IMG/VR virus record: IMGVR_UViG_3300031256_000055
Location: 1-56,710 of that record
Reading direction: 5' to 3' (one strand)
Origin: a virus
Lineage: Duplodnaviria; Caudoviricetes
DNA length: 56,710 bases
Part shown: piece by piece, positions 1,765 through 42,136 of the stretch
Numbering within the stretch: the first letter of the stretch is position 1
How the letters are laid out: every line of letters begins with the position of its first letter
Made by a program: the position numbers and the translations under genes
Notes under the pieces: model-generated
What the model was told of the DNA's origin: nothing
What the model saw: only the letters and a program-made list of their open reading frames with translations
Database searches by the model: none

Positions 1765-2259
1765 ATGGGACGAAAAGAACGAAAAATAATAAATGCCGAA
1801 CTACTCGAAGGATGTAAAAAAGGTTATCGATGGCGAGCTAATTCCGGGATGGCATGGCAGGGTAAAAAAATAAAACCCCCTGAACATATTTTAAAAATAC
1901 TTTCTTCATGGATGAAAGCCAACGGAATTAAACATAAACAAATAATAATACTTGCGGACCCTCGCCCATTTCACGGAATGCCTTCCGGTTTTTTTGATGT
2001 ATTCGGGTGGGAAAATATGACTGTTTGCGAAATAATAAAAAAACGAGACGATCATTCTCCATGTATGATAGATGAAACATCGAAAAAATCAGATTGTGAA
2101 GGTTGTGATTTAAATAATTCCGTTGCTGTCTTCGTGGGTGTAGAATGTAAAACCACAAACGATAATTTAAAACCGGATCAAATAAAATACAGGGATGCAT
2201 TGAAAAAATCCGGGGGTATATATCATGTAAGGAGGGAAGATGGCTATGTGGAAAAATAA
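1765..2259 (+). CDS. VRR-NUC family nuclease
   Basis: WRANSG, GFFDVFG, FVGVECKT..LKPDQIKY..KSGGIY; adjacent to SF2 helicase. Confidence 0.75.
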   Translation: MGRKERKIINAELLEGCKKGYRWRANSGMAWQGKKIKPPEHILKILSSWMKANGIKHKQIIILADPRPFHGMPSGFFDVFGWENMTVCEIIKKRDDHSPCMIDETSKKSDCEGCDLNNSVAVFVGVECKTTNDNLKPDQIKYRDALKKSGGIYHVRREDGYVEK

Positions 2260-5982: not shown

Positions 5983-8900
5983 ATGAAAATACTTGAACTT
6001 TCCGACCTTCACCTTGACCCGAAATGGATTGAAGCACAAAAACCATGCTTGAATAAGATAATAGAAACCGGAAAGAAAGAAAAACCGGATTTTATTTGTA
6101 TTGCTGGCGATTTTTCTAATAGACCTTTCTATAATTCAGACAAAGATTCTATATCCTTTGTTAGACGATTCGTAAAAGACCTGCTTAAAATTGCCCCTGT
6201 CGTTATGATAACCGGGACACCTGCCCACGATGCCCCTGGAAGCTATGGGATATTTGAGGACTTAGGATGTCATGTAATAAAACCAAACAAGCCGGAAATT
6301 ATAAACGATGTTTTATTCATAGGACTTCCTGAAATCGATAAAATAAGTCTTATGACAAGAAGTAAATTATCTATGGAAGAAGCCAATGCATCTATTATGA
6401 AATCCTTAAATAATTTTATGGATAGATACTGGAAACCGGTCCGGGAAGCAAATAAGGACAAGCCCTGTATATTTATGGGCCATGGCGTTTTTGTTGACGA
6501 TCTTGAAAAATCAAAAAGTAACCCCATAATAAAAAACTCCGACTTTGTGATAGATAATCGAATATTGAAAACTATAAATGCGGACCGGTATATATTCGGT
6601 CATTTCCATACGCCGGAAGAATCGAAGATTTTAAACGGAGGATATGTTGGTTATGCCGGATTTGACAAAACGCCGTGGAATAATACAGGGTTTCAACCAG
6701 GGTTTAATCTGACAAAATTGATGAAAAGGGGAGGCATAGCACAAGGGGAAACATTACCTATCACCGATTATGTGCCAATAGTTACCCGCATTCCCTACCC
6801 CGTTACACGTCGCGAAAAACGAAACATCAAATATAACCCTAATATGAAATTAAACACCCTTGCTCAATGGCATCACTGTGACGTAAGATTAAACATGGAA
6901 ATATCTAAATCGGATTTAAGGAAAATCGATATTGAAGAAATGCAACAAAAGTACGTTGATGATTTCAGTCTTAATTCTTGCCTTATAGTACCTCAACTTA
7001 TCCGCGAAGAATCCGACAGGATAACAGTTGAGCAGGCAGAGGAATTGAATACCGATTGGAAAAAGTATTGCTTCTTCAAGAAATGGGAAAAGCCTGAAGA
7101 CCCGGGCCATAAATCCGTTTACCTAAAATTTACCGAAATGATTGACAACGTTTTATCCCGTTCGATTTCAAAAGAAAAAAAAGATGTTTATCTGTTAGAT
7201 GCAACAATTCACGGGAGTATTTTCTCAAAAGATGCACATAACAAGGATACACTATATTATGATTTCAGTAATGACCCAAAAGGCTTGACGTTGCTTTCCG
7301 GGGATAACGGAAAATGTAAAAGTACATACCTCGGGTTCCTGTTACCTTATCCGTATTTTGTCGGGTTTGATTACAGGACTCTTAAGGAATTTTTCATCCT
7401 GGATGATTCATACATTAAAAAAAACTTTATGGTTAATGGCCAAAGACACCAGCATTTAATTTACATTCCTGAAAAAAAAGGAATAAAATGTTATTGGAAT
7501 GTAGAAACGGAAACCGGGGAATTAAAATCTTTCATGGAAACCGACAAATTATCTGATTTCATGGAAGCCTGTGAGAAATATTATGGTCCTATGGATTCAT
7601 TCATTTCAACTTGCTTTCATGCGCAGGAACCACACCGGATGTCAAAATATGTTTCTTCCCTGGCAAGTTCTTCCTCTACCGAACTACGGAATGCGTATAT
7701 GAAAATAATCGGAATTGACCGGGAAGGCGAGCGGGAATATGCAAAACTTAAAAAGAAAAGTATTGAGTCTGAAATACACGACCTTGAAACACAGAAAAAC
7801 ACTATGAATGATTTCATAGTTGATAATGACACGGTGTATGAAGAAAAGAAAAGGCTTGAATCTGAAATCGAAAAACTTGAAAAGGAAATAAATAAAATCA
7901 GAGTTGAAGAAAAACACGCAGAGCAGGAATTGAAAAATAATACCATAAAAAAAGAAAAACAGGATAAAATAAAAACTGAACTGGAAATCATAAAAGGCAA
8001 CCTGAACAATCTCAATTTTTCTATAATCGAAAAACAAACCAAACTCAAAGAATTTGAATCTATAAATATTGAAGAGCTTAAAAAACAAATTGCCGATAAT
8101 GAAACCGTAAAGGCTCAACTTGATAAAACCCGTGACGACTGGAAAGGATATTCAGAAGCAAAGCAGAAAATTGAAAAAGAAATTGCAGAGATTCAAGAAA
8201 AAATAAATAATAAAAATAATGAATTAAAAGATCATAAAAATAAAATAGAAAATAATAACTTACAGATTAAAAATTATGAAAAAGAAAATGAATTATTAAA
8301 TAAAAAATGTTTTCACTGTGGTAAAAATCCAAATCCCGAAAGCGAACAAAAGATAAATGATAACAGCCATCTTATAGATCAATACAAAGCGTATAACAAA
8401 GGTCATGAAGAACTTATAGCAAAGAAAGAAAAAGAAAGTGCCCAACTCGAAACAGAAATACACAAGTTTGATGAATCAATATATAACGTAACTTTAAATC
8501 TTGAAAATATAACCGATGAAGGAAACAAACTCAAAGCAAAATTATTATCCCTTGAAAAAATCCAGGCTATCAATAATAAACTTGATGAATGCAAGGATTA
8601 TGAATCTCTTAAAAAATCGATATCCGAAATTGAAACCGAGATTAAAAAACTTTCCCAGGAAATCGATGATAAAACAAAAACTTTGAATCCATTCATTACT
8701 ATACAGTACGAAAAATCAAAAACCGAACTCAACAAAGTCACAACGGAATTAAACAATAAAAATAATGAACTTTCAAAACAAACCGGGTTACTTGAGGCAA
8801 TCAAAAATCAGATTGTCAAGATTGAAAAGTATAAAACCGAACTTGAGGTAATTTTAAAAGCCCTGGATGAAAAGGTAATTGACTTAACTGAATGGGAAGG

Positions 8901-9441: not shown

Positions 9442-9745
9442 ATAAATACGTTGCACGAGTATTACCGTGGTGATATTTTGTAGGGCTTATTGATATAATA
9501 ACACCATTGATATTTTTATATAACATTTGTGTAGTAGTTTTAATTCCTTATAGCATAGTTAATTATATGCCAATAGGTGATAATATTCACATCATATAAT
9601 TTATACAAATCAACCGACATGTAACTCCTTATATTATAGACAATTATAATTATACCCGTTTAGGTAATATTTGCTAAAATATAAAATTATTAAAAATAAA
9701 ACTTCGTGACGGCGATCCTCGAAGCACTTTATTATTAAAAAACCC

Positions 9746-30520: not shown

Positions 30521-30534
30521 ATTTTAGCCCTCCC

Positions 30535-30936
30535 TTAAGCTACTGAAATTTGAGGCGGTGTAAATTGCACCTTGATATAATCCGCATCATCCTCGACATC
30601 CTCATAGAGATATCCTACGAGATAATCACCGGCAACTCTTACCGCGTGAAATGTAGCACCACCGGGAGTCATGAACACTGCATCGTATTTTTCACCGGCA
30701 GCAAAAGAATCATCAATTTGTGCAATCTGCCACACATCGCCAATTACAGATCGTATATTCCCCGCTTCACCATCTGTTATTCCGTCTTCGTCCGGTACAT
30801 ATCCGCAGACGTTGAACGATACCGCATCGGGATCATTGACCCACATTATAAACTGATATTGTGTAAGGTCTGCCCCCTGGTTGTTTTCATAATTATATGT
30901 CTGACCGTCGTTTCCGGCCCTTTCTAATAGATTCAT
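30535..30936 (-). CDS. Capsid decoration/cement-like protein
   Basis: 133-aa acidic, Gly-rich protein between scaffold and capsid genes. Confidence 0.55.
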   Translation of the reverse strand: MNLLERAGNDGQTYNYENNQGADLTQYQFIMWVNDPDAVSFNVCGYVPDEDGITDGEAGNIRSVIGDVWQIAQIDDSFAAGEKYDAVFMTPGGATFHAVRVAGDYLVGYLYEDVEDDADYIKVQFTPPQISVA

Positions 30937-30961: not shown

Positions 30962-32140
30962 TCATAACTTAACAAACTGATCATTTCCAAGAATCGAATT
31001 ACTTAGTTTATCAGCTCCCGGACCCTCTGTCGAAATCAAATTTGATTCGGAATAAACATCAGCGGCCTGTTTTGACAAACTTAAAACAACCGGGTTCTTT
31101 TTCGCGGTTTCGATTTGCGCTTTCAATTCGTCTATACTTTGTTTGTTTTTTAATACAAGCGGTTCCGCGGCATTCCGGATAAGATTGTCTGTCTCAACCC
31201 CATTGACCTTCTTTTTTTCAGGACCGAATTCTTTAAACATAATTTTTTCACGCTCATTATCATACAACTGTTGTTCAACTTTACCGGCGTTTAATTTCAA
31301 TTCGTTAATTGCCGCAATTGGATTTTCACCCACGATGGTTTTTATTTCATCGATCATTTTAATTGCGTTCATATGAACATCGGTTGCAATCGGTATCTTA
31401 AGCCGATTCGCAAGATCAACAACCGAGACTGTACCGTTTGTTAGTCGATTACCCAGGTTTATAATTATTTCATCAAGTGTTAATGTATTTTCTGGCATAC
31501 TTCTTTCCTCCGTTTTATCTTTATTTATATTATTTTTATCCTGGTTTTTATCCAGGTTTTTATTAACTTTCTGTTCCATCGCTCCCATGTCACGCTCTAC
31601 GGCATCGTTGCGCTCACCTTTCGCGGACCGAATAGCTTTACGGGAAATCACATTTCCTTCCTCATCATAATCGACTGACATTTCAGGCCATGTAACAATC
31701 GAAAAATGAATAACTCCGGTTTTAACAGCCTTGATAAATGTCTCATTCGATGAGCTTTGTCCCATGGGGGGAATGTACATTTTTAATTTTATAGAGTTTC
31801 CTGATATCTCACCACCAACAACGAAAAAATCAGATTCCCCGGTTGCCCACCATTCCCAAGGGTCGGTATGCCCTGACTTTGCCCCTGGAATTGGTGCATC
31901 GTTTAATTTTGCAATATACGATTCCCAAAATTCGCGGGTGTACTCAATACCATTCGCGGGTAATGTATAATCAAGAATTTCCTCGACAACATAATAAGGC
32001 TTTTTATCGCCTGCCGTTAATACTGATAGCGAGGCGTTTGGGATGAGGTTTGGTATTGTTTCTGGTGGGATAGAGAAATTTAAAACAGTTCTGCATAAAA
32101 AAGGGGTATCGGATAGAGTTTTTTTATTAGTTATTATCAA
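30962..32140 (-). CDS. Prohead protease/scaffold-like protein (start revised to TTG 32140)
   Basis: GGGAGG SD 9 nt before the in-frame TTG; ANGIEY, KSGH, HFSI in the N-domain; helical C-terminal half. Confidence 0.6.
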   Translation of the reverse strand: MIITNKKTLSDTPFLCRTVLNFSIPPETIPNLIPNASLSVLTAGDKKPYYVVEEILDYTLPANGIEYTREFWESYIAKLNDAPIPGAKSGHTDPWEWWATGESDFFVVGGEISGNSIKLKMYIPPMGQSSSNETFIKAVKTGVIHFSIVTWPEMSVDYDEEGNVISRKAIRSAKGERNDAVERDMGAMEQKVNKNLDKNQDKNNINKDKTEERSMPENTLTLDEIIINLGNRLTNGTVSVVDLANRLKIPIATDVHMNAIKMIDEIKTIVGENPIAAINELKLNAGKVEQQLYDNEREKIMFKEFGPEKKKVNGVETDNLIRNAAEPLVLKNKQSIDELKAQIETAKKNPVVLSLSKQAADVYSESNLISTEGPGADKLSNSILGNDQFVKL

Positions 32141-32172
32141 AATATAAAGCCTCCCAGCTACTACACTATATA

Positions 32173-32200
32173 AGTATACACTTGTTAAGTAGTTTGTCAA
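32173..32200 (-). promoter_or_regulatory. Promoter of the head-tail-lysis operon
   Basis: Minus strand TTGACA-N16-TATACT; predicted transcription start near 32166. Confidence 0.65.
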
Positions 32201-32316: not shown

Positions 32317-32838
32317 ATGATAATTAAAGCAAATGAAATATCTAATTCATATAAAGGTTGGGTAAAGAAAATTACCCCCGACAAAGTTAATTTAAAAAAA
32401 TATAATGGATATTCCCTAATCGGGAATTTTTACAAACCGGATGAGGCTATTGTTATTGATAGCGGAGAATTTTTTGTTATTGATTCAGGGGGCAGACGCC
32501 CTGTAAGAAAATTGTATAGTTCTTCTTCAAAGGAAATAACAAAAAAAATGAGACGTTCTGTTCAAAAGAAAGCTAATTTTTCAGAAGAAATATTGGCAGG
32601 AATTGAAAATTCTATATTATATGATTTTGGTGCATATGTAGTTGCTTTATCTATTATTACAGAAAAAATAAAAACCCCTAAAAAAGAATTCAATCCTCTT
32701 GAAAAATTTACGATTGAACAGCTTATTAAAGAACTTCAAAATAGAGGGCATAATATAAAATTAGACGATAAAGATATTTTCTTAAAAAGTTCTAAACCGG
32801 AAGAAAAAGGCCGATTTGCAGCCTTAGAATTGGAATAA
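32317..32838 (+). CDS. Hypothetical protein
   Basis: 173 aa, AGGAGG SD. Confidence 0.65.
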   Translation: MIIKANEISNSYKGWVKKITPDKVNLKKYNGYSLIGNFYKPDEAIVIDSGEFFVIDSGGRRPVRKLYSSSSKEITKKMRRSVQKKANFSEEILAGIENSILYDFGAYVVALSIITEKIKTPKKEFNPLEKFTIEQLIKELQNRGHNIKLDDKDIFLKSSKPEEKGRFAALELE

Positions 32839-32842
32839 TATT

Positions 32843-33157
32843 ATGAAAATAAAAACATATACAATTGAGAAAAATGTAAGAGATAATATCAAAGTCTGGG
32901 GGGCTATTATAGTCGGATTACACCCTAAATATAATTTTAATCGAGTGTTTTCTTCATATCGATATTTAAATGATTGTAGTTCAAAACACGCTTATTATGA
33001 TTATTATATTGATGTGGAGGAAAATCAAATAATAGAAATAGGCATCAAAAGTCAATATAAAAACAAAAGATTATATTACCATCTTAATAACGGTCAATTT
33101 GTTTGCATTAAACAAGAAGATGTTGTAAGGATTTTAAATGAACAAGAAGTGGCTTAA
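32843..33157 (+). CDS. Hypothetical protein
   Basis: 104 aa, coupled to the next gene. Confidence 0.6.
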   Translation: MKIKTYTIEKNVRDNIKVWGAIIVGLHPKYNFNRVFSSYRYLNDCSSKHAYYDYYIDVEENQIIEIGIKSQYKNKRLYYHLNNGQFVCIKQEDVVRILNEQEVA

Positions 33158-34400
33158 TATAAATGTCTTAGAAGCTGCAAAAGAAAGGATTAAATATATA
33201 TTCGATGAATTTGAATGTATTTATATTTCTTTTTCGGGTGGAAAAGATTCAACGGTTATGCTTCATCTGGTAATGGATGAATGTATAAAGCGTAATAAAA
33301 AGATAGGGTTACTATTTATTGACTGGGAAGCTCAATACAAGTACACAATAGAACACATTAAAAAATGTCTTGAATTGTATAAAGAATATATAGACATATA
33401 TTGGGTGGCGTTACCGTTAAAAACAACCAATTCGGTTTCTCAATTCGAACCTGAATGGATATGCTGGGAAAGGGGGAAAGAAGATATATGGGTAAGAGAA
33501 TTACCAAATAATTGTATATCTGCTTATAATTTTTTTGATTTTTATCATTATGGGATGTTATTTGAAGAATTCATTTTTGAATTTGGTAAATGGTATCAAA
33601 AAAGACAAGCGGGTAATAATGAATACACTAATATTCACACGGCTTGTCTTATAGGAATAAGAACTGACGAAAGCTTTAATCGACTCTTGAAATTAAGAGT
33701 TGAAAAATATAGAACTTTTTATAAAAAGAAAAAATGGATTCTTAAGCAGAAATCGACACAAAGGAATATTTTTTCTGTGCATCCTATTTATGATTGGAAA
33801 ACAAAAGATGTTTGGACTTATACAGGAAAATACGATAAGATTTATAATAAATTATATGATAGGATGCATCAAGCGGGTGTTAAATTATCTCAGCAAAGAA
33901 TATGTGAACCGTATGGGGATGAACAAAAAAAGGGATTATGGTTATTCCATATTATCGAACCCGAAACATGGGGTAAGATAGTTTCCCGAGTTAATGGTGC
34001 TAATAGTGGAGCTTTATATGCTAAAGAGAATGGAAGTATTACAGGTAGAATAAAAATAACAAAGCCAGAAAATCATACATGGGAATCCTTTGCGAGATTT
34101 TTATTAAATTCTATGCCAACAGCAACCAGAGAACATTATGAAAATAAAATATTGATTTATATTAATTATTGTAACAGTCAAAATATTCCTATTCCCTATT
34201 TTCAAGACAAAGATACAGGGACAAAAGATATTCCTTCATGGAGAAGAATATGTAAATGTTTACTTAAAAATGATTATTGGTGTTATATGCTTTCTTTTTC
34301 CGCAAATAGAAGTGAATTGATTGATAAATATTTAAAAATGATGAGACGTAGAAAACAAACGCAAAGATTTCAACAATTAAAAAAAAGACATCAATTATAA
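33138..34400 (+). CDS. PAPS-reductase-family / DUF3440 protein (IbrA-like)
   Basis: ISFSGGKDS PP-loop, FIDWEAQY, IGIRTDESFNR, PIYDW, QRICEPYG, SWRRICKCLLKNDYWC. Confidence 0.88.
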   Translation: MNKKWLNINVLEAAKERIKYIFDEFECIYISFSGGKDSTVMLHLVMDECIKRNKKIGLLFIDWEAQYKYTIEHIKKCLELYKEYIDIYWVALPLKTTNSVSQFEPEWICWERGKEDIWVRELPNNCISAYNFFDFYHYGMLFEEFIFEFGKWYQKRQAGNNEYTNIHTACLIGIRTDESFNRLLKLRVEKYRTFYKKKKWILKQKSTQRNIFSVHPIYDWKTKDVWTYTGKYDKIYNKLYDRMHQAGVKLSQQRICEPYGDEQKKGLWLFHIIEPETWGKIVSRVNGANSGALYAKENGSITGRIKITKPENHTWESFARFLLNSMPTATREHYENKILIYINYCNSQNIPIPYFQDKDTGTKDIPSWRRICKCLLKNDYWCYMLSFSANRSELIDKYLKMMRRRKQTQRFQQLKKRHQL

Positions 34401-34966
34401 TGAAGATAAGAGAGGTTAAAATGGATTTACAAATATTATCTAACGAACAGGCTTTAACAGAATTAAATTTTGTTAAAGATAATCCCGTATCAAAAATATA
34501 TTGGATTCCTATTTATATGATTTCTGCAAATAATTATAACCCTAATTCAGTAGCTAAACCAGAAATGGAATTATTAGAATTGAGTATTAACAAAGATGGA
34601 TATACACAACCAATTGTTGTTTGGAAAATTGATCAGGACAAATTTGAAGTCGTAGACGGATTTCATAGATACTTAATTGGTAAAAATAAATTAAAACTAT
34701 CTCATCTGCCTTGTGTAATAATAAATAAAGATCGTATAGACCGGAATGATAGAATTGCTTCAACAATAAGACATAATAGAGCAAGGGGAAAGCATAAGGT
34801 TGAATCTATGAGTGATATAGTCGTCGAATTATCTCGAAGGAATTGGAGTGATAAAAGAATAGCAAAAGAACTGGGTATGGATCAAGATGAAATTTTGAGA
34901 TTGAAACAGGTTACAGGACTTGCTGATTTATTTAAAGATGAAGAGTTTAGTCAGGCATGGGAATAA
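34400..34966 (+). CDS. ParB/Srx-like nuclease-domain protein (IbrB-like)
   Basis: ANNYNPNSVA, DGYTQPIV, VVDGFHR, ASTIRHNRARGKH, C-terminal HTH, FSQAWE. Confidence 0.88.
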   Translation: MKIREVKMDLQILSNEQALTELNFVKDNPVSKIYWIPIYMISANNYNPNSVAKPEMELLELSINKDGYTQPIVVWKIDQDKFEVVDGFHRYLIGKNKLKLSHLPCVIINKDRIDRNDRIASTIRHNRARGKHKVESMSDIVVELSRRNWSDKRIAKELGMDQDEILRLKQVTGLADLFKDEEFSQAWE

Positions 34967-34995
34967 AAATAATTAAATTATTTTCACTTTACCTA

Positions 34996-35024
34996 TTGAC
35001 TTATTACTCGTTTAGGTATATATT
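34996..35024 (+). promoter_or_regulatory. Early promoter with operator variant
   Basis: TTGACT-N17-TATATT; TACTCgtttAGGTA. Confidence 0.75.
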
Positions 35025-35070
35025 GTATATATAAGGGTTGCAGAAAACAACCTAAACCAAGGAGGCGATT

Positions 35071-35268
35071 ATGATAGACAATACAATAATTAGTGCTATA
35101 GTTGAAGGGCAAATAAGAAAAATTATTGCCCTTTGTGACACAAAAATAGCCCAGGGTGACCGGGTTGAAAACATGCAAAGAATAAAAAAAAGTGCGCAAC
35201 AAGTAGTTGATTCAGGCGATGATGATCTAATGGTTGCATGGTGTCAAAAAATGGGCGTTAAGCTTTAA
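35071..35268 (+). CDS. Hypothetical protein
   Basis: 65 aa, AAGGAGG SD. Confidence 0.65.
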   Translation: MIDNTIISAIVEGQIRKIIALCDTKIAQGDRVENMQRIKKSAQQVVDSGDDDLMVAWCQKMGVKL

Positions 35269-35269
35269 C

Positions 35270-35425
35270 GTTCCGGTGTCGCGAAGCCGGTAAGAGTCGG
35301 GTAATTTCCCGGCGTAACGGTGTGTCGGGTAATCGTGCCAATCCTGACAGTTCACGTGAGACTATACCACGAATCCAAATTAAAACGGTCGGTGTAAAGC
35401 CTCCCAGCTATTACGCCGACCTCGG
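35270..35425 (+). ncRNA. Putative multi-hairpin regulatory RNA with an anti-SD loop
   Basis: GC-rich intergenic island with several stems; last hairpin 35387-35421 exposes CTCCCA and is complementary to the late 5' UTR 32141-32166. Confidence 0.65.
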
Positions 35426-35433
35426 GAGGAAAG

Positions 35434-36907
35434 ATGTTTATTATTATATTGTTTTTACCTGCATATCTATTGTCAGGATATGGTGTCTTTAAAGGATTAA
35501 TTGATAAAAATATATATTCAATAGCTTCCTGGGGTTGTTTGATGATAGTGATATCTATTTTTGTGATAGGAATAGAAATATGCAATTCAATAAACAACAT
35601 AAACAAAAGAACAACAAATTAAGGAGTGACAGCCATGACAACGATTGATAAAATTGCAACCGTAGATTTTTTGAAAGAAATCTACAAAAAAATCAAACCG
35701 TCAAACACCAAAGGGATAACTATATCTCATCCCTTGTTTGTGTTTGATAAGCCGGAAAAGGAAAGTCACCTTGCTAAACTCATCATAAAACTTGAAGAGG
35801 AGATATTCTTTGATGAAAACGGAGAATAACGCCGAGACAATAACCTGCATAATATATATCAATAATGAACCTTTTTTATGTTTTCCGGAATCGAAGGAAG
35901 TTTATAATGAAATGATATATTACAAACTTCCTTATCAGAAAAGGGCAAGATTCAGATTGTCTGAAATACCAAATCTTAAATTCAGGTTTTTAGAAATTAG
36001 AGAATCATTATATAACGGATTCTTTAAAATCAATTGTGAAATGGAGTAAATTATGAAAGATGAAATTGTTTATAAAGAAAAATATCGAAAACCAGGTGTG
36101 AAACATATTAAACCTCCTGTGGTTGATAGCGACATGGAATGCTTTGAGGCTTATACAATCGAAGCGGGGATAATTGAAAGAGACGGGCAACGGCTTGAAT
36201 ATCAAATTATTAAAGCTTTTTTTAAAGAGAAGGATATTAATCATGACAATAAACGATTTTTTAAATATGGATGTAATTGCATTAAGTAATTATATTGATG
36301 ACAAAAAACATTATGATAAAATATCAAAAGATTTGTATCGTTCAACCTGCGAATGTATAGATGCGATAGACGCATTAAGCAATGAAAATTTTCCCGTTAA
36401 TACTGCAGGTAATAGACAGATGAATGTAATCGTAATTGAGATACTCAAAGACTATACCGAACGAATAAAACGAGGTGAAATAAAATGAAGAAATGTATTT
36501 TTTTATATTCCCGAATATACACAATATTAAAAAACACAAAACGTAAAAAAGACAGGATAAAAAATAAAAGACTATTTACATGCAAAAACTTTATGGCAAC
36601 AAACCTGAACGTAAGCAAACCTTTTAAAAATAGGTTTCTACATTGCTTTTTATGTCCGTTCAAAGAAAAGGAGTAACCCATGAACCCATCAGATCAGGAG
36701 TATAATGATATAATGAGACAAACACCCGAGAAACCGCGGTGTAAAGTCTGTGATAATGAATTCGCCGACAGAGACCCGAAAATTAAAACGGTCTTATTAT
36801 TAAATTACGATGCTAAAGATAACGCTCCGATATATGGTGAATTCTATATTTGCCGGGGGTGCATTTACCGTATATCAGCAACGATTGATGTTATGTTACA
36901 AGATTAA
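35434..36907 (+). other. Run of small, translationally coupled hypothetical genes (35434, 35626, about 35813, 36053, about 36243, 36485, 36680)
   Basis: Tightly packed 60-105 aa ORFs, several with SDs; no recognisable motifs. Confidence 0.55.
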
Positions 36908-37914: not shown

Positions 37915-38181
37915 TTATGGTTAACCTCAAATGTCATGTTTAAGGTTCTATTATTTAGTTTATCCGGATAAAATAAAGTTAACATCCCGTATGAATAATA
38001 AACCGGGGCATTATATAGATAGATGGCTTTACCGACTTTTATTATTTTTTTCATTAAGTTTTCCTCTTAATTTTTTTTGAACATTTTTGACAAATAGTTT
38101 TTCCTTTTAATATAAATCTAACATAAGAATTCCTTCCACATTCATCACAAGTGCCTCTACCAGTTATATATTTTATTTTTT

Positions 38182-38871
38182 TCATAGATTCCCCTGGAAA
38201 ATTAAATCTTGCATTTCATCTTGTGGGAATAAATTGGTTTGTGATATATGGTTTTTATACCGGTCCTCTTGAGCTTGCCAGTAATCCGGGTCATTTTCGG
38301 TGCCGATAAAATCAAACCCCATGTCATAACAGGCGATACGGGAAGAACCGGAACCCACGTGTGAATCAAAGATTTTCCATTCGGATTGAGTGTAGTTTTT
38401 AAGGAGCCATTTATATAAGGCAATGGGTTTTTGATGCCTATGGATTCTTATTTCTTTATTTCTCATATTTCCCTGCAGCATACCAGCCCATCTATATTTA
38501 AAAATCCTTGTTGCTATATTAAAAGAAGTCCATGCAAGTTCACAATCCGCATAATCAGTATTTCCATTTTCTTTATCCCAGATTATCATGCATGAGGTAT
38601 CATATAAATCATTTATAAAATAATTGCCACCCCATATTATTTGATTTTTTGATATTCTAAAAAGTTCTTTAAAATAATTTGAGTCTGGTCTTTTACATTC
38701 ATAAGGTTTGTATTTTTTAGCAAATGCTTTTTTACCCCTGGTTTCATTTTTCGATGTTTCCTCTCCATTCCCATACGGCGGATCCACAACCGCCAAATCA
38801 AAAAACTTATCCGGTACCGTCGACATATACTCCATATTGTCGACGCAGTACACTTCATTTTTAATACTCAA
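38182..38871 (-). CDS. DNA amino-methyltransferase (N6-A/N4-C, beta class)
   Basis: DLAVVDPPYG, IIWGGNYF, HRHQKPIALY, FDSHVGSGS. Confidence 0.92.
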   Translation of the reverse strand: MSIKNEVYCVDNMEYMSTVPDKFFDLAVVDPPYGNGEETSKNETRGKKAFAKKYKPYECKRPDSNYFKELFRISKNQIIWGGNYFINDLYDTSCMIIWDKENGNTDYADCELAWTSFNIATRIFKYRWAGMLQGNMRNKEIRIHRHQKPIALYKWLLKNYTQSEWKIFDSHVGSGSSRIACYDMGFDFIGTENDPDYWQAQEDRYKNHISQTNLFPQDEMQDLIFQGNL

Positions 38872-40385: not shown

Positions 40386-40754
40386 TTAAATAGTGTTATT
40401 ATAGTCTATTAACTCTTGTTTTGTCAAGTATTTTCTGTGTTTGTTTTTTATCTTACAAATTCTATGCTCTTCAACACTTCCGGGCGATTTTTTCCACCCG
40501 GGCATAAAAAAAATTATATCACATTTCAACATCCAGGAAATGCAATCATCAAGAATAGCTTCCCTGCCCTCAATTGTGTAGTCGGCCCCCTCTAAATACA
40601 TAAAATTAGTATGAGGACAAAAAACTGTATATCCCTTGCTTCTCAAATAAGCTGCCGCTTTCATAGCCTCCTGGATATTTTCTCTTATGGTTTTTTTGTC
40701 CCCCGAATAAGGCCCTGCAACATAAGCAAATATTTTTTCTTTCGTTTTGTTCAT
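40386..40754 (-). CDS. DUF4406/DUF1937-like (nucleoside deoxyribosyltransferase-fold) protein
   Basis: AYVAGPYSG, VFCPH, CDIIFFMPGWKKSPGSVEE. Confidence 0.75.
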   Translation of the reverse strand: MNKTKEKIFAYVAGPYSGDKKTIRENIQEAMKAAAYLRSKGYTVFCPHTNFMYLEGADYTIEGREAILDDCISWMLKCDIIFFMPGWKKSPGSVEEHRICKIKNKHRKYLTKQELIDYNNTI

Positions 40755-42136
40755 ACATCCAACCTCCCAGCATTACGCCTGATATTTTTTCTTACCTTCT
40801 CTCGCATCTTTTCCCGGTTTTCCGACGACACAATAAGACTATTCCCTGACACATAACAAGCCAATACAACCGCGTCACCTTCATCCGGGGACCGACCATA
40901 CAAATCCTTAAAATCTTCTTTTTTCTGTATTTTTTTTCGGATCTTCGTATCATATCCATACGTCCGGGCCGTCAAATCTTGCACTAAGTCTGTTGAATTA
41001 GAATCTCTGGGGATTTCAAGATATTGCATCATTTCGGCGGTTTCAAAATACATTTCCGTTGCTACATTCGCATATTCCTTGTCATCTTTTGCGGTTCCAC
41101 CGAAGTTTATAGGGTTCACATTTTTAAACCCCCATAATTTTAATTGATCTATCATACCACCGGCCCCTAATCCCCCGTTATCTATATTTATGATAGAGAA
41201 TTTATTATCTGCCTTGGCCGCAACCTCTCTGGCTGTCACTATAGGAGCTTCGTGTTTTATCCTAAAAAGTTTTTTCATCTTATATCCACGTCTCTCATAA
41301 GCAATAGAAAAATCATCGCCAAACCTTGCAACGTCTACACCTATTACCTGTTTCCCGGATGCCTTGACAATCCTATTCATAGCAAGATCAACAAGATCAC
41401 GTCTCATTATAGCTTTTTCAACCTGAGCTATGGGTTCATTCATATAGATATGTAAATATTTGTCATAATTATTTTTACGCATGATTTCCATTTCAAGGCG
41501 TAGTACATCAGGAAACCACGGATTGTCTATATAATTACATTCGATGAATAGGGTTGATGGATCATCTTTACACATGTTGTATTGTTTCATCACCGGGTCA
41601 ACCTCAAAATATTTGTTCCATATCATCCATATTTCGGAGTCAGGCGCGCGGATGGTATGAATAGCCATATCCCAGGACACTTCCGGTACCGCTTCCCCTT
41701 CATCGACTATCAGATAGTTGAAATTAGAATATCCCTTGATTGATCGTGCAGCCCGTAAATCACGCAACCCTTTGAATTTAAAAATACTGCCGGTTTTTAT
41801 ATTAACAATTTTTTCGTTTTGTATATCCCAATTCGGATATCCCATATACCGTATCATTTCTGCAATTTCTGAGTGCAAGGAATCCGCTATTGAATCCAGG
41901 ATTTCCCTTGCCCACAAAACCTTGATTCGTCTAATCGAAGCAATACGTATCATTATCCGCACAACAGATTGTGTTTTCCCGGACCCCCTCCCACCAGTTA
42001 TAAATTTCTTACGGTAAGGTTCCCACAAGGGCATGAGCTTAGGCGGGATTTGATCAAGCTCTTGCTGTCTCAATAATTGCAAGAGCCTAATATTATCGTG
42101 TGTGTCTATTGTTTTTTTATATACTGGTTTTATCAA
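40751..42136 (-). CDS. terL: Terminase large subunit (PBSX/SPP1-like)
   Basis: GGRGSGKT, FKFKGL, IVDEGE, NYIDNPWF, GVDVARFGDD, SPDEGDA. Confidence 0.93.
   Translation of the reverse strand: MIKPVYKKTIDTHDNIRLLQLLRQQELDQIPPKLMPLWEPYRKKFITGGRGSGKTQSVVRIMIRIASIRRIKVLWAREILDSIADSLHSEIAEMIRYMGYPNWDIQNEKIVNIKTGSIFKFKGLRDLRAARSIKGYSNFNYLIVDEGEAVPEVSWDMAIHTIRAPDSEIWMIWNKYFEVDPVMKQYNMCKDDPSTLFIECNYIDNPWFPDVLRLEMEIMRKNNYDKYLHIYMNEPIAQVEKAIMRRDLVDLAMNRIVKASGKQVIGVDVARFGDDFSIAYERRGYKMKKLFRIKHEAPIVTAREVAAKADNKFSIINIDNGGLGAGGMIDQLKLWGFKNVNPINFGGTAKDDKEYANVATEMYFETAEMMQYLEIPRDSNSTDLVQDLTARTYGYDTKIRKKIQKKEDFKDLYGRSPDEGDAVVLACYVSGNSLIVSSENREKMREKVRKNIRRNAGRLDV

Follow-up and report, generated by a model that had tools for sequence, protein, structure and literature searches.

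The window analysed here, a single contig of 56,710 bases that constitutes the whole assembly, is the low-GC (34%) genome of an uncultivated phage from a salt-marsh metagenome. Its minus-strand late genes run in the order terL, the terminase large subunit gene (42136 to 40751; PF04466, E = 3.4e-25), a 122-aa DUF4406 / nucleoside 2-deoxyribosyltransferase-like gene (40754 to 40386; PF14359, E = 3.3e-10; phrog_355, E = 2.2e-22), the portal gene (40367 to 38868), a DNA methyltransferase gene, and a head-morphogenesis gene (37914 to 36904). A plus-strand block (32317-36907) comprising a PAPS-reductase/DUF3440 gene, a ParB-like gene, and small ORFs comes after the head-morphogenesis gene, and minus-strand late genes start again at about 32140, past this block. 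The PAPS-reductase/DUF3440 and ParB-like genes form a pair at 33138-34966 (+), antiparallel to the late genes and upstream of the structured RNA described below; the pair may resemble IbrA/IbrB-type regulators.

Two junctions in the first late segment are relevant here. The terL stop codon (TGA, 40753-40751) overlaps the DUF4406 start codon (ATG, 40754-40752) in an ATGA (40754-40751), and a Shine-Dalgarno (SD) sequence GGGAGG lies 8 nt upstream, within terL, an arrangement that makes the two genes a translationally coupled pair. The portal gene is preceded by a promoter-like TTGACA-18-TATAAT matching 12 of 12 consensus positions (40398-40427, minus strand), located in the 3' end of the DUF4406 gene and upstream of the portal SD and ATG (40367). 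Comparable promoter-like sites lie ahead of portal in the relatives L001, L041, and L043, which suggests that several strong transcription units make up the late region. The DUF4406 gene is found between terL and portal in all relatives examined.

Ahead of the plus-strand small-ORF block, the window contains a hairpin, hereafter hairpin A (35387-35421, plus strand), whose 14-pair stem has one bulge and ends in an AGC/GCU top; the loop (35401-35406) reads CUCCCA. Its predicted fold of -21.5 kcal/mol (z = -2.95) was equalled by 1 of 200 shuffled sequences. Directly 3' of the hairpin are an SD (GGGAGG, 35424-35429) and the ATG at 35434, at which the small-ORF block starts. The structured leader on its 5' side (35270-35386, plus strand) contains two hairpins, the first of which (CCGGU..ACCGG) has UAAGA after it, and a candidate pseudoknot around ACGGUGUGUCGGGUAA..CCUGACAG. 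These leader modules are common to relatives, the leader RNA being located at 35270-35433 (+) in the window, 1895-2075 (-) in L033, 9335-9475 (-) in L041, 7215-7385 (-) in L043, 9345-9470 (-) in L004, and 9480-9600 (-) in L042. The candidate H-type pseudoknot module (ACGGUGUGUCGGGUAACCGUGCCAAUCCUGACAG) is present in the window, L001, L033, L041, and L043 and not in L004 or L042; its first stem, read by eye from the alignment, is ACGGU/ACCGU in four sequences and CAGGU/ACCUG in L043. Two promoter-like sites, at 34996-35024 and 35075-35102, fit a plus-strand orientation of the putative hairpin RNA. Just upstream of the structured RNA in L041, on the same strand, is a small gene with a helix-turn-helix-like sequence (..TAKLLKLSERTIRKHCKLLGV.., about 9480-9700, minus strand), at the position of which the window has an unrelated 65-aa ORF (35071-35268).

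Database comparisons did not link this RNA to a described family. A cmscan of the whole window against Rfam gave no match at gathering scores, and a scan of 34900-35500 at E values up to 10 returned only mir-2816 and sau-63, both at chance level; the hairpin and leader belong neither to the Rfam C4 antisense RNA family nor to any other Rfam family. INPHARED phage records yielded no blastn match to 34900-35700. Scanning viral contigs for the pseudoknot module recovered three stretches, all in already known contigs, and scanning them for the pattern AGTAGCTGGGAGGC recovered 51, with two copies only in three known contigs. A search for a second near-copy at the other 48 loci revealed no hairpin-UTR pair, and these look like chance matches in contigs that are unrelated and for the most part GC-rich. 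A comparison of exact 12-mer SD repeats across 91 loci likewise uncovered no additional hairpin/UTR pairs. The comparison of hairpins between lineages is based on single-sequence folds, as an ungapped consensus fold of the six hairpins was in poor register and retained only 8 pairs.

The first-pass annotation of this DNA had proposed that the terL 3' end carries a target of hairpin A, namely that 40761-40779 matches 35398-35417 with one bulge and one G-U pair. Re-reading both plus-strand sequences (AGCCTCCCAGCTATTACGCC at 35398-35417 and AACCTCCCAGCATTACGCC at 40761-40779) bears this out: 18 of 19 positions are identical, the remaining one is a G-U pair between G35399 and U40762 of the mRNA (a G/A difference in DNA), and a single hairpin base, T35409, is left unpaired. 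On the minus strand this stretch, which we call site C (40761-40779), reads GGCGUAAUGCUGGGAGGUU as mRNA and is the complement of the hairpin A loop and 3' arm. Site C encodes part of the C-terminal tail ...IRRNAGRLDV of terL and lies within its last codons R-R-N-A-G-R-L, with an 8-nt spacer between the site C mRNA and the DUF4406 ATG. Coordinates also confirm the proposed overlap with the GGGAGG SD (40768-40763) in the end codons of terL. The gene served by this SD, gene 40754 of the annotation, is the DUF4406 gene (40754 to 40386) and not portal. The portal SD itself is not complementary to hairpin A and pairs with it poorly (-15.9 kcal/mol; net -3.2).

Within this genome, the match at site C is not chance-like. 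When both strands were scanned with RNAduplex in 45-nt windows (7556 in all; mean -7.0, sd 3.75), site C scored -34.3 kcal/mol, surpassed only by the hairpin's own antisense (-41.3) and by a second site at 32155, site B (-36.8), with the next unrelated window at -23.0. Hybridization energy relative to other SD regions, the comparison on which the first-pass annotation had staked its proposal, places site C far above the 17 other GGGAGG sites, whose duplexes range from -13.1 to -20.5. Decoy 20-mers that kept the CCTCCC core and had shuffled flanks were run against 175 SD-like targets, and only 1 of 1500 reached -34.3 (best-of-genome mean -23.6, sd 2.1), which corresponds to a chance probability of about 1e-3 for a match this good. 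When the unfolding of both hairpin and target was counted in a cofold calculation, site C remained the second-best trans site in the genome, with a smaller margin: -11.1, with site B at -19.0 and the remaining 17 GGGAGG sites between -7.8 and 0.0. An extended SD, with complementarity to the 16S rRNA tail continuing past GGAGG, was considered as an explanation and provisionally set aside.

Site B (32141-32166, minus strand) comprises the 5' UTR and SD of a prohead-protease/scaffold-like gene and forms a contiguous 26-bp complement to hairpin A that includes 5 G-U pairs. The gene has a probable TTG start at 32140, conserved in relatives. Directly upstream of site B, a promoter-like TTGACA-16-TATACT (32173-32200, minus strand) can be read from the sequence, its TTGACA being kept in relatives, and the predicted transcript start falls at about the first paired base of site B. 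The encoded protein had no sequence match in Pfam, PHROG, or PDB, and a PDB profile search gave nothing below E = 0.9. In an AlphaFold model (mean pLDDT 75.4), the C-terminal half is helical and scaffold-like, and the best Foldseek match of the N-terminal domain is T4 gp21 (5jbl_A; E = 4.8e-4, probability 1.00, target TM 0.55). By its fold, this gene is probably a prohead protease of the T4 gp21 / herpesvirus-protease type.

Relatives of the site B gene, taken from metagenome and viral contigs, indicate that its 5' UTR and the hairpin have evolved together. The UTR core TAGCTGGGAGGCT and the TTG start are kept at the nucleotide level in L003, L004, L033, L041, and L043, with proteins that are only 42-53% identical (best tblastn segment), and L042 carries the core variant AAGCTTGGAGGCT. 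Six lineages have both copies (the window, L004, L033, L041, L042, and L043), and in all six the second copy, 0.3-3.2 kb upstream of the one in the UTR, occupies the loop and both arms of a hairpin with a GC stem. Four of these relatives (L004, L041, L042, and L043) share the order terL, DUF4406, (methyltransferase), portal, head morphogenesis, hairpin, and site B gene. Hairpin stems differ in sequence among lineages and all fold, and lineage-specific flanks match between the two copies, with AAGCTTGGAGGCTGTACTT in both copies of L042 and GCTATTCTTT in both copies of L033. Contiguous complementarity between hairpin and site B spans 26, 22, 22, 16, 23, and 15 bp in the six lineages. With loop-centred 20-mers from five relatives, the hairpin's own antisense always ranked first and site B second (-28.4 to -32.4), and the third-ranked site reached only -21.0 to -27.7. 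Stronger duplexes than that of site B in L041 (-43.7 at 7961, and others), obtained with a 35-nt query, were rejected: they rest on the GC-rich stem arms and vanish with the loop-centred query. We found no hairpin copy in the 807 nt upstream searched in L003 or the 880 nt in L002, and more distant relatives (at most 35% identity) have ordinary SDs and no hairpin/UTR pair. Complementarity has thus been held through lineage-specific changes on both partners in all six lineages, as is characteristic of a conserved antisense target, and these sequence comparisons suggest that hairpin A is very probably a real, conserved antisense element with site B as its target.

An alternative is that the repeated motif acts in the same sense, for instance as the operator of a translational repressor, as a site for another RNA- or DNA-binding protein, or as a ribosome decoy, with site C as a partial third copy. 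The three DNA copies are direct repeats, so that mimic and antisense are indistinguishable by sequence identity alone; in addition, the core TAGCTGGGAGGC is nearly invariant in five of six lineages, beyond what pairing needs, and, of the transitions that separate the hairpin copy from the site B copy, 18 are compatible with G-U pairing on the proposed strands and 12 are not, a weak bias. In the window, however, 6 of 7 such transitions are G-U compatible, and in each lineage the copy in the hairpin reproduces the SD-to-start spacer peculiar to that lineage's site B, something a protein-binding site would have no use for. Downstream of the hairpin come an SD and ATG (window, L001, L004, L033, and L042) or a U-run (L041 and L043), all of them, like the neighbouring genes, on the strand complementary to site B, and this strand is therefore probably the transcribed one. 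No third copy exists in relatives. We therefore consider a same-sense element improbable. The SD of a 421-aa capsid-like gene (30523-30550, minus strand; CAGTAGCTtaaGGGAGGgCT) is also a partial copy of this motif, into which 3 nt are inserted. As a candidate target this copy (30534) was rejected: its duplex is ordinary (-19.7), L003, L041, and L042 have plain SDs there, and the motif is absent in relatives.

The antisense reading of hairpin A at site B does not extend to site C across lineages. When each locus was tested with its own hairpin (35-nt query), the terL/DUF4406 junctions of L004, L041, L042, and L043 behaved as ordinary SDs, with duplexes of -15.9, -22.8, -20.0, and -16.4 compared to -37.3 in the window. 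No equivalent of site C is present in any of the five other lineages, and site C accordingly lacks the conservation that identifies site B as a target. The first-pass view of the hairpin as an antisense regulator is thus plausible for site B, where complementarity is conserved and lineage-specific, and is not supported for site C as a second control point.

Closer to the window, L001 is the sole relative that was read at the nucleotide level over site C; a terL protein scan of viral contigs returned L001 only, and a scan of genome contigs with the head-morphogenesis alignment gave 46 pattern matches, none of which was confirmed. The terL protein of L001 is 99% identical to that of the window, and the DNA is about 90% identical over 4.6 kb, starting upstream of terL and reaching the methyltransferase gene. 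L001 carries an identical hairpin and yet reads GGCAUAAUGCCGGGAGG at the site, with two uncompensated A-C mismatches that bring the duplex to -23.8, equal to the decoy mean, and the net energy to -3.8. Between window and L001, 70 of 1386 terL positions differ (5.1%), as do 3 of the last 30 nt, and 24% of all 30-nt terL windows have at least three differences. The first-pass annotation had pointed to conservation at the terL 3' end as a check on its proposal, and the outcome runs against it, 2 of the 19 paired positions being different, compared to 5.1% gene-wide. Five amino acids differ between the two terL proteins, two of them in the last 8 codons. Site C evolves at or above the terL average rate, with no extra conservation.

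Variation at a single codon illustrates how the pairing is completed in the window. Residue 454 of terL, whose codon contains the pairing base G40776, is Arg in two of the seven members of the terL cluster (the window and one Logan contig), His in four, and Gln in one; the cluster representative is 96% identical to the window. The Logan contig with Arg454 may come from the same population as the window. It is the window codon CGT (Arg) that completes pairing, and five of the seven cluster members have CAT or CAR instead. If His were ancestral, a non-synonymous A-to-G change at the CAT codon would have improved pairing in the window and would fit selection for pairing, but outgroups have R, K, Q, or S at this residue and leave the polarity ambiguous. 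Hairpin A (35387-35421) is unchanged in the X2 and X4 run contigs among the differences listed, whereas the flanking positions 35379, 35381, 35383, 35422, and 35423 differ. Since the hairpin is invariant while its flanks are not, it did not track site C.

The similarity at site C can be followed through the coding sequence of terL. Its tails are homologous codon by codon (IRRNAGRLDV in the window, IRSNRRRFIT in L004, and IAKIKRRFIS in L041), and in every lineage arginine-type codons of the tail also serve as the SD for the gene that overlaps terL downstream. In the window clade, the codons GCN GGG AGG (A-G-R, where relatives have R-R-R or K-R-R) give GCUGGGAGG, which is the site B core, and the window variant adds CGT and GCT. 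Two further transitions in this variant complete an 8-bp match to the hairpin 3' arm. Because the terL tails align codon by codon, we conclude that site C arose by point changes in place. The competing possibility, in which about 20 nt were copied between the hairpin/site B region and the end of terL by recombination or template switching and have no function, would account for the sharp stop of similarity at both ends of the 19-20 nt and would suit a mosaic region in which the methyltransferase gene and small ORFs differ between window and L001. Codon-by-codon alignment of the tail argues against such a transfer, and the H, Q, and R variants at residue 454 hint at point-mutational intermediates, which renders it highly improbable. 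Taken together, a same-sense protein or decoy motif and a short-patch transfer remain quite unlikely.

The reading that competes more directly with a fortuitous match takes site C for a real second target gained recently, at which the DUF4406 ribosome-binding site would be blocked or the duplex cleaved, tying the terminase transcript to the head-operon switch. A duplex reached by a single decoy in 1500 makes coincidence uncomfortable, the net energy stands behind that of site B alone, and two positions of the hairpin 3' arm that form G-U pairs with site B become Watson-Crick with site C; the window-specific CGT codon, moreover, is the one that completes pairing. Against this, site C is missing in five of five other lineages, is degraded in L001 despite an identical hairpin, and shows no excess conservation. 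It also lies in a translated ORF, where the ATGA overlap suggests that ribosomes finishing terL would read through site C and unwind the duplex, and site C does not precede a morphogenesis gene, portal having its own promoter and SD. A young target of this kind appears unlikely. It is a little more doubtful still that the hairpin RNA has been caught in the act of gaining a second target, with two changes in the terL tail (one of them His to Arg) extending a fortuitous SD match to a 19-bp duplex and the terminase/DUF4406 transcript thereby also coming under control. On balance we lean toward the view that site C is pairing-competent but private to this variant, without maintained function.

A working model can be outlined for the hairpin itself. 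Hairpin RNA would be a structured plus-strand RNA ahead of the small-ORF block from 35434, and would be transcribed, act in trans, and repress. Its CUCCCA loop would kiss the UGGGAG of a target SD, with pairing then spreading into both arms and occluding the ribosome-binding site. The proposed conserved target is the site B gene, the first gene behind a strong late promoter. If abundant, the hairpin RNA could also bind site C. Because the net gain is modest, the pairing region is translated as part of terL, and nothing but the DUF4406 gene stands behind it, an effect at site C would most likely be incidental or evolutionarily very young. Even with pairing, no effect on the other half of the morphogenesis region is expected, since the DUF4406 gene is behind the SD and portal has its own promoter and SD. 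The first-pass suggestion that one RNA could throttle both halves of the split morphogenesis region is therefore not supported: none of the five other lineages has the site, L001 has it in degraded form, the DUF4406 gene is not a morphogenesis gene, and portal is served by its own promoter.

Of the known phage antisense RNAs, c4 has multiple target sites, and sar is encoded opposite its own target; hairpin A, by contrast, lies 3.2 kb away from site B and 5.3 kb away from site C. The review PMC12197685 describes c4 of phages P1 and P7 as a trans-acting, phage-encoded RNA whose loop-displayed complements bind around the ribosome-binding site and block translation, and the same source presents sar of phage P22 as a small antisense RNA that pairs with mRNA and blocks translation initiation. 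By analogy, c4 of P1/P7 would be the closest known counterpart in mechanism. The hairpin described here differs from it in targeting a late structural operon (prohead protease) rather than an antirepressor, in lying ahead of a divergent operon rather than upstream of its own target, in having no Rfam match, and in that its second site, site C, is not conserved. In Firmicutes, the C-rich-loop sRNAs RsaE/RoxS and RNAIII use an unpaired UCCC loop to bind several mRNA SDs and stop the initiation complex from forming (PMC2790875). The CUCCCA loop of hairpin A resembles these, and one RNA with several SD targets is already a known kind; however, the Firmicute sRNAs are chromosomal and multi-target with a short seed, whereas pairing here extends over 15-26 bp, into both stem arms, at a single conserved target. 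As in SD-sequestering leaders, hairpin A places the anti-SD CCUCCC 18 nt ahead of GGGAGG (35424-35429), the SD of the next gene, so that a cis role is possible, but the minimum-energy fold leaves this SD free, and a cis role would leave the lineage-specific complement to site B unexplained.

These observations point to a family of structured phage RNAs that is small, has not been described before, and is missing from Rfam, and in which loop and arms co-vary with the 5' UTR of the head operon. If confirmed, this would represent c4-like antisense control of late structural genes in uncultivated, low-GC salt-marsh phages, and a post-transcriptional layer on late-gene timing. The near-identical variants that differ at site C would then provide natural mutants for target specificity. 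Site C, for its part, illustrates that even a complementarity that stands out within its genome (about 1 in 1000 by decoys) may not survive a single comparative test, and it does not on this ground qualify as a second regulatory target. Local mosaicism is also visible in this phage, which is otherwise 90-95% identical among close relatives. Segments 36047-36485, 38041-38182, and 38433-38792 are missing or replaced in close relatives (the X2 run contig and L001); they cover small ORFs, the spacer ahead of the methyltransferase gene, and part of the methyltransferase gene, the protein of which is 64% identical among close relatives, compared to 93-99% for neighbouring genes.
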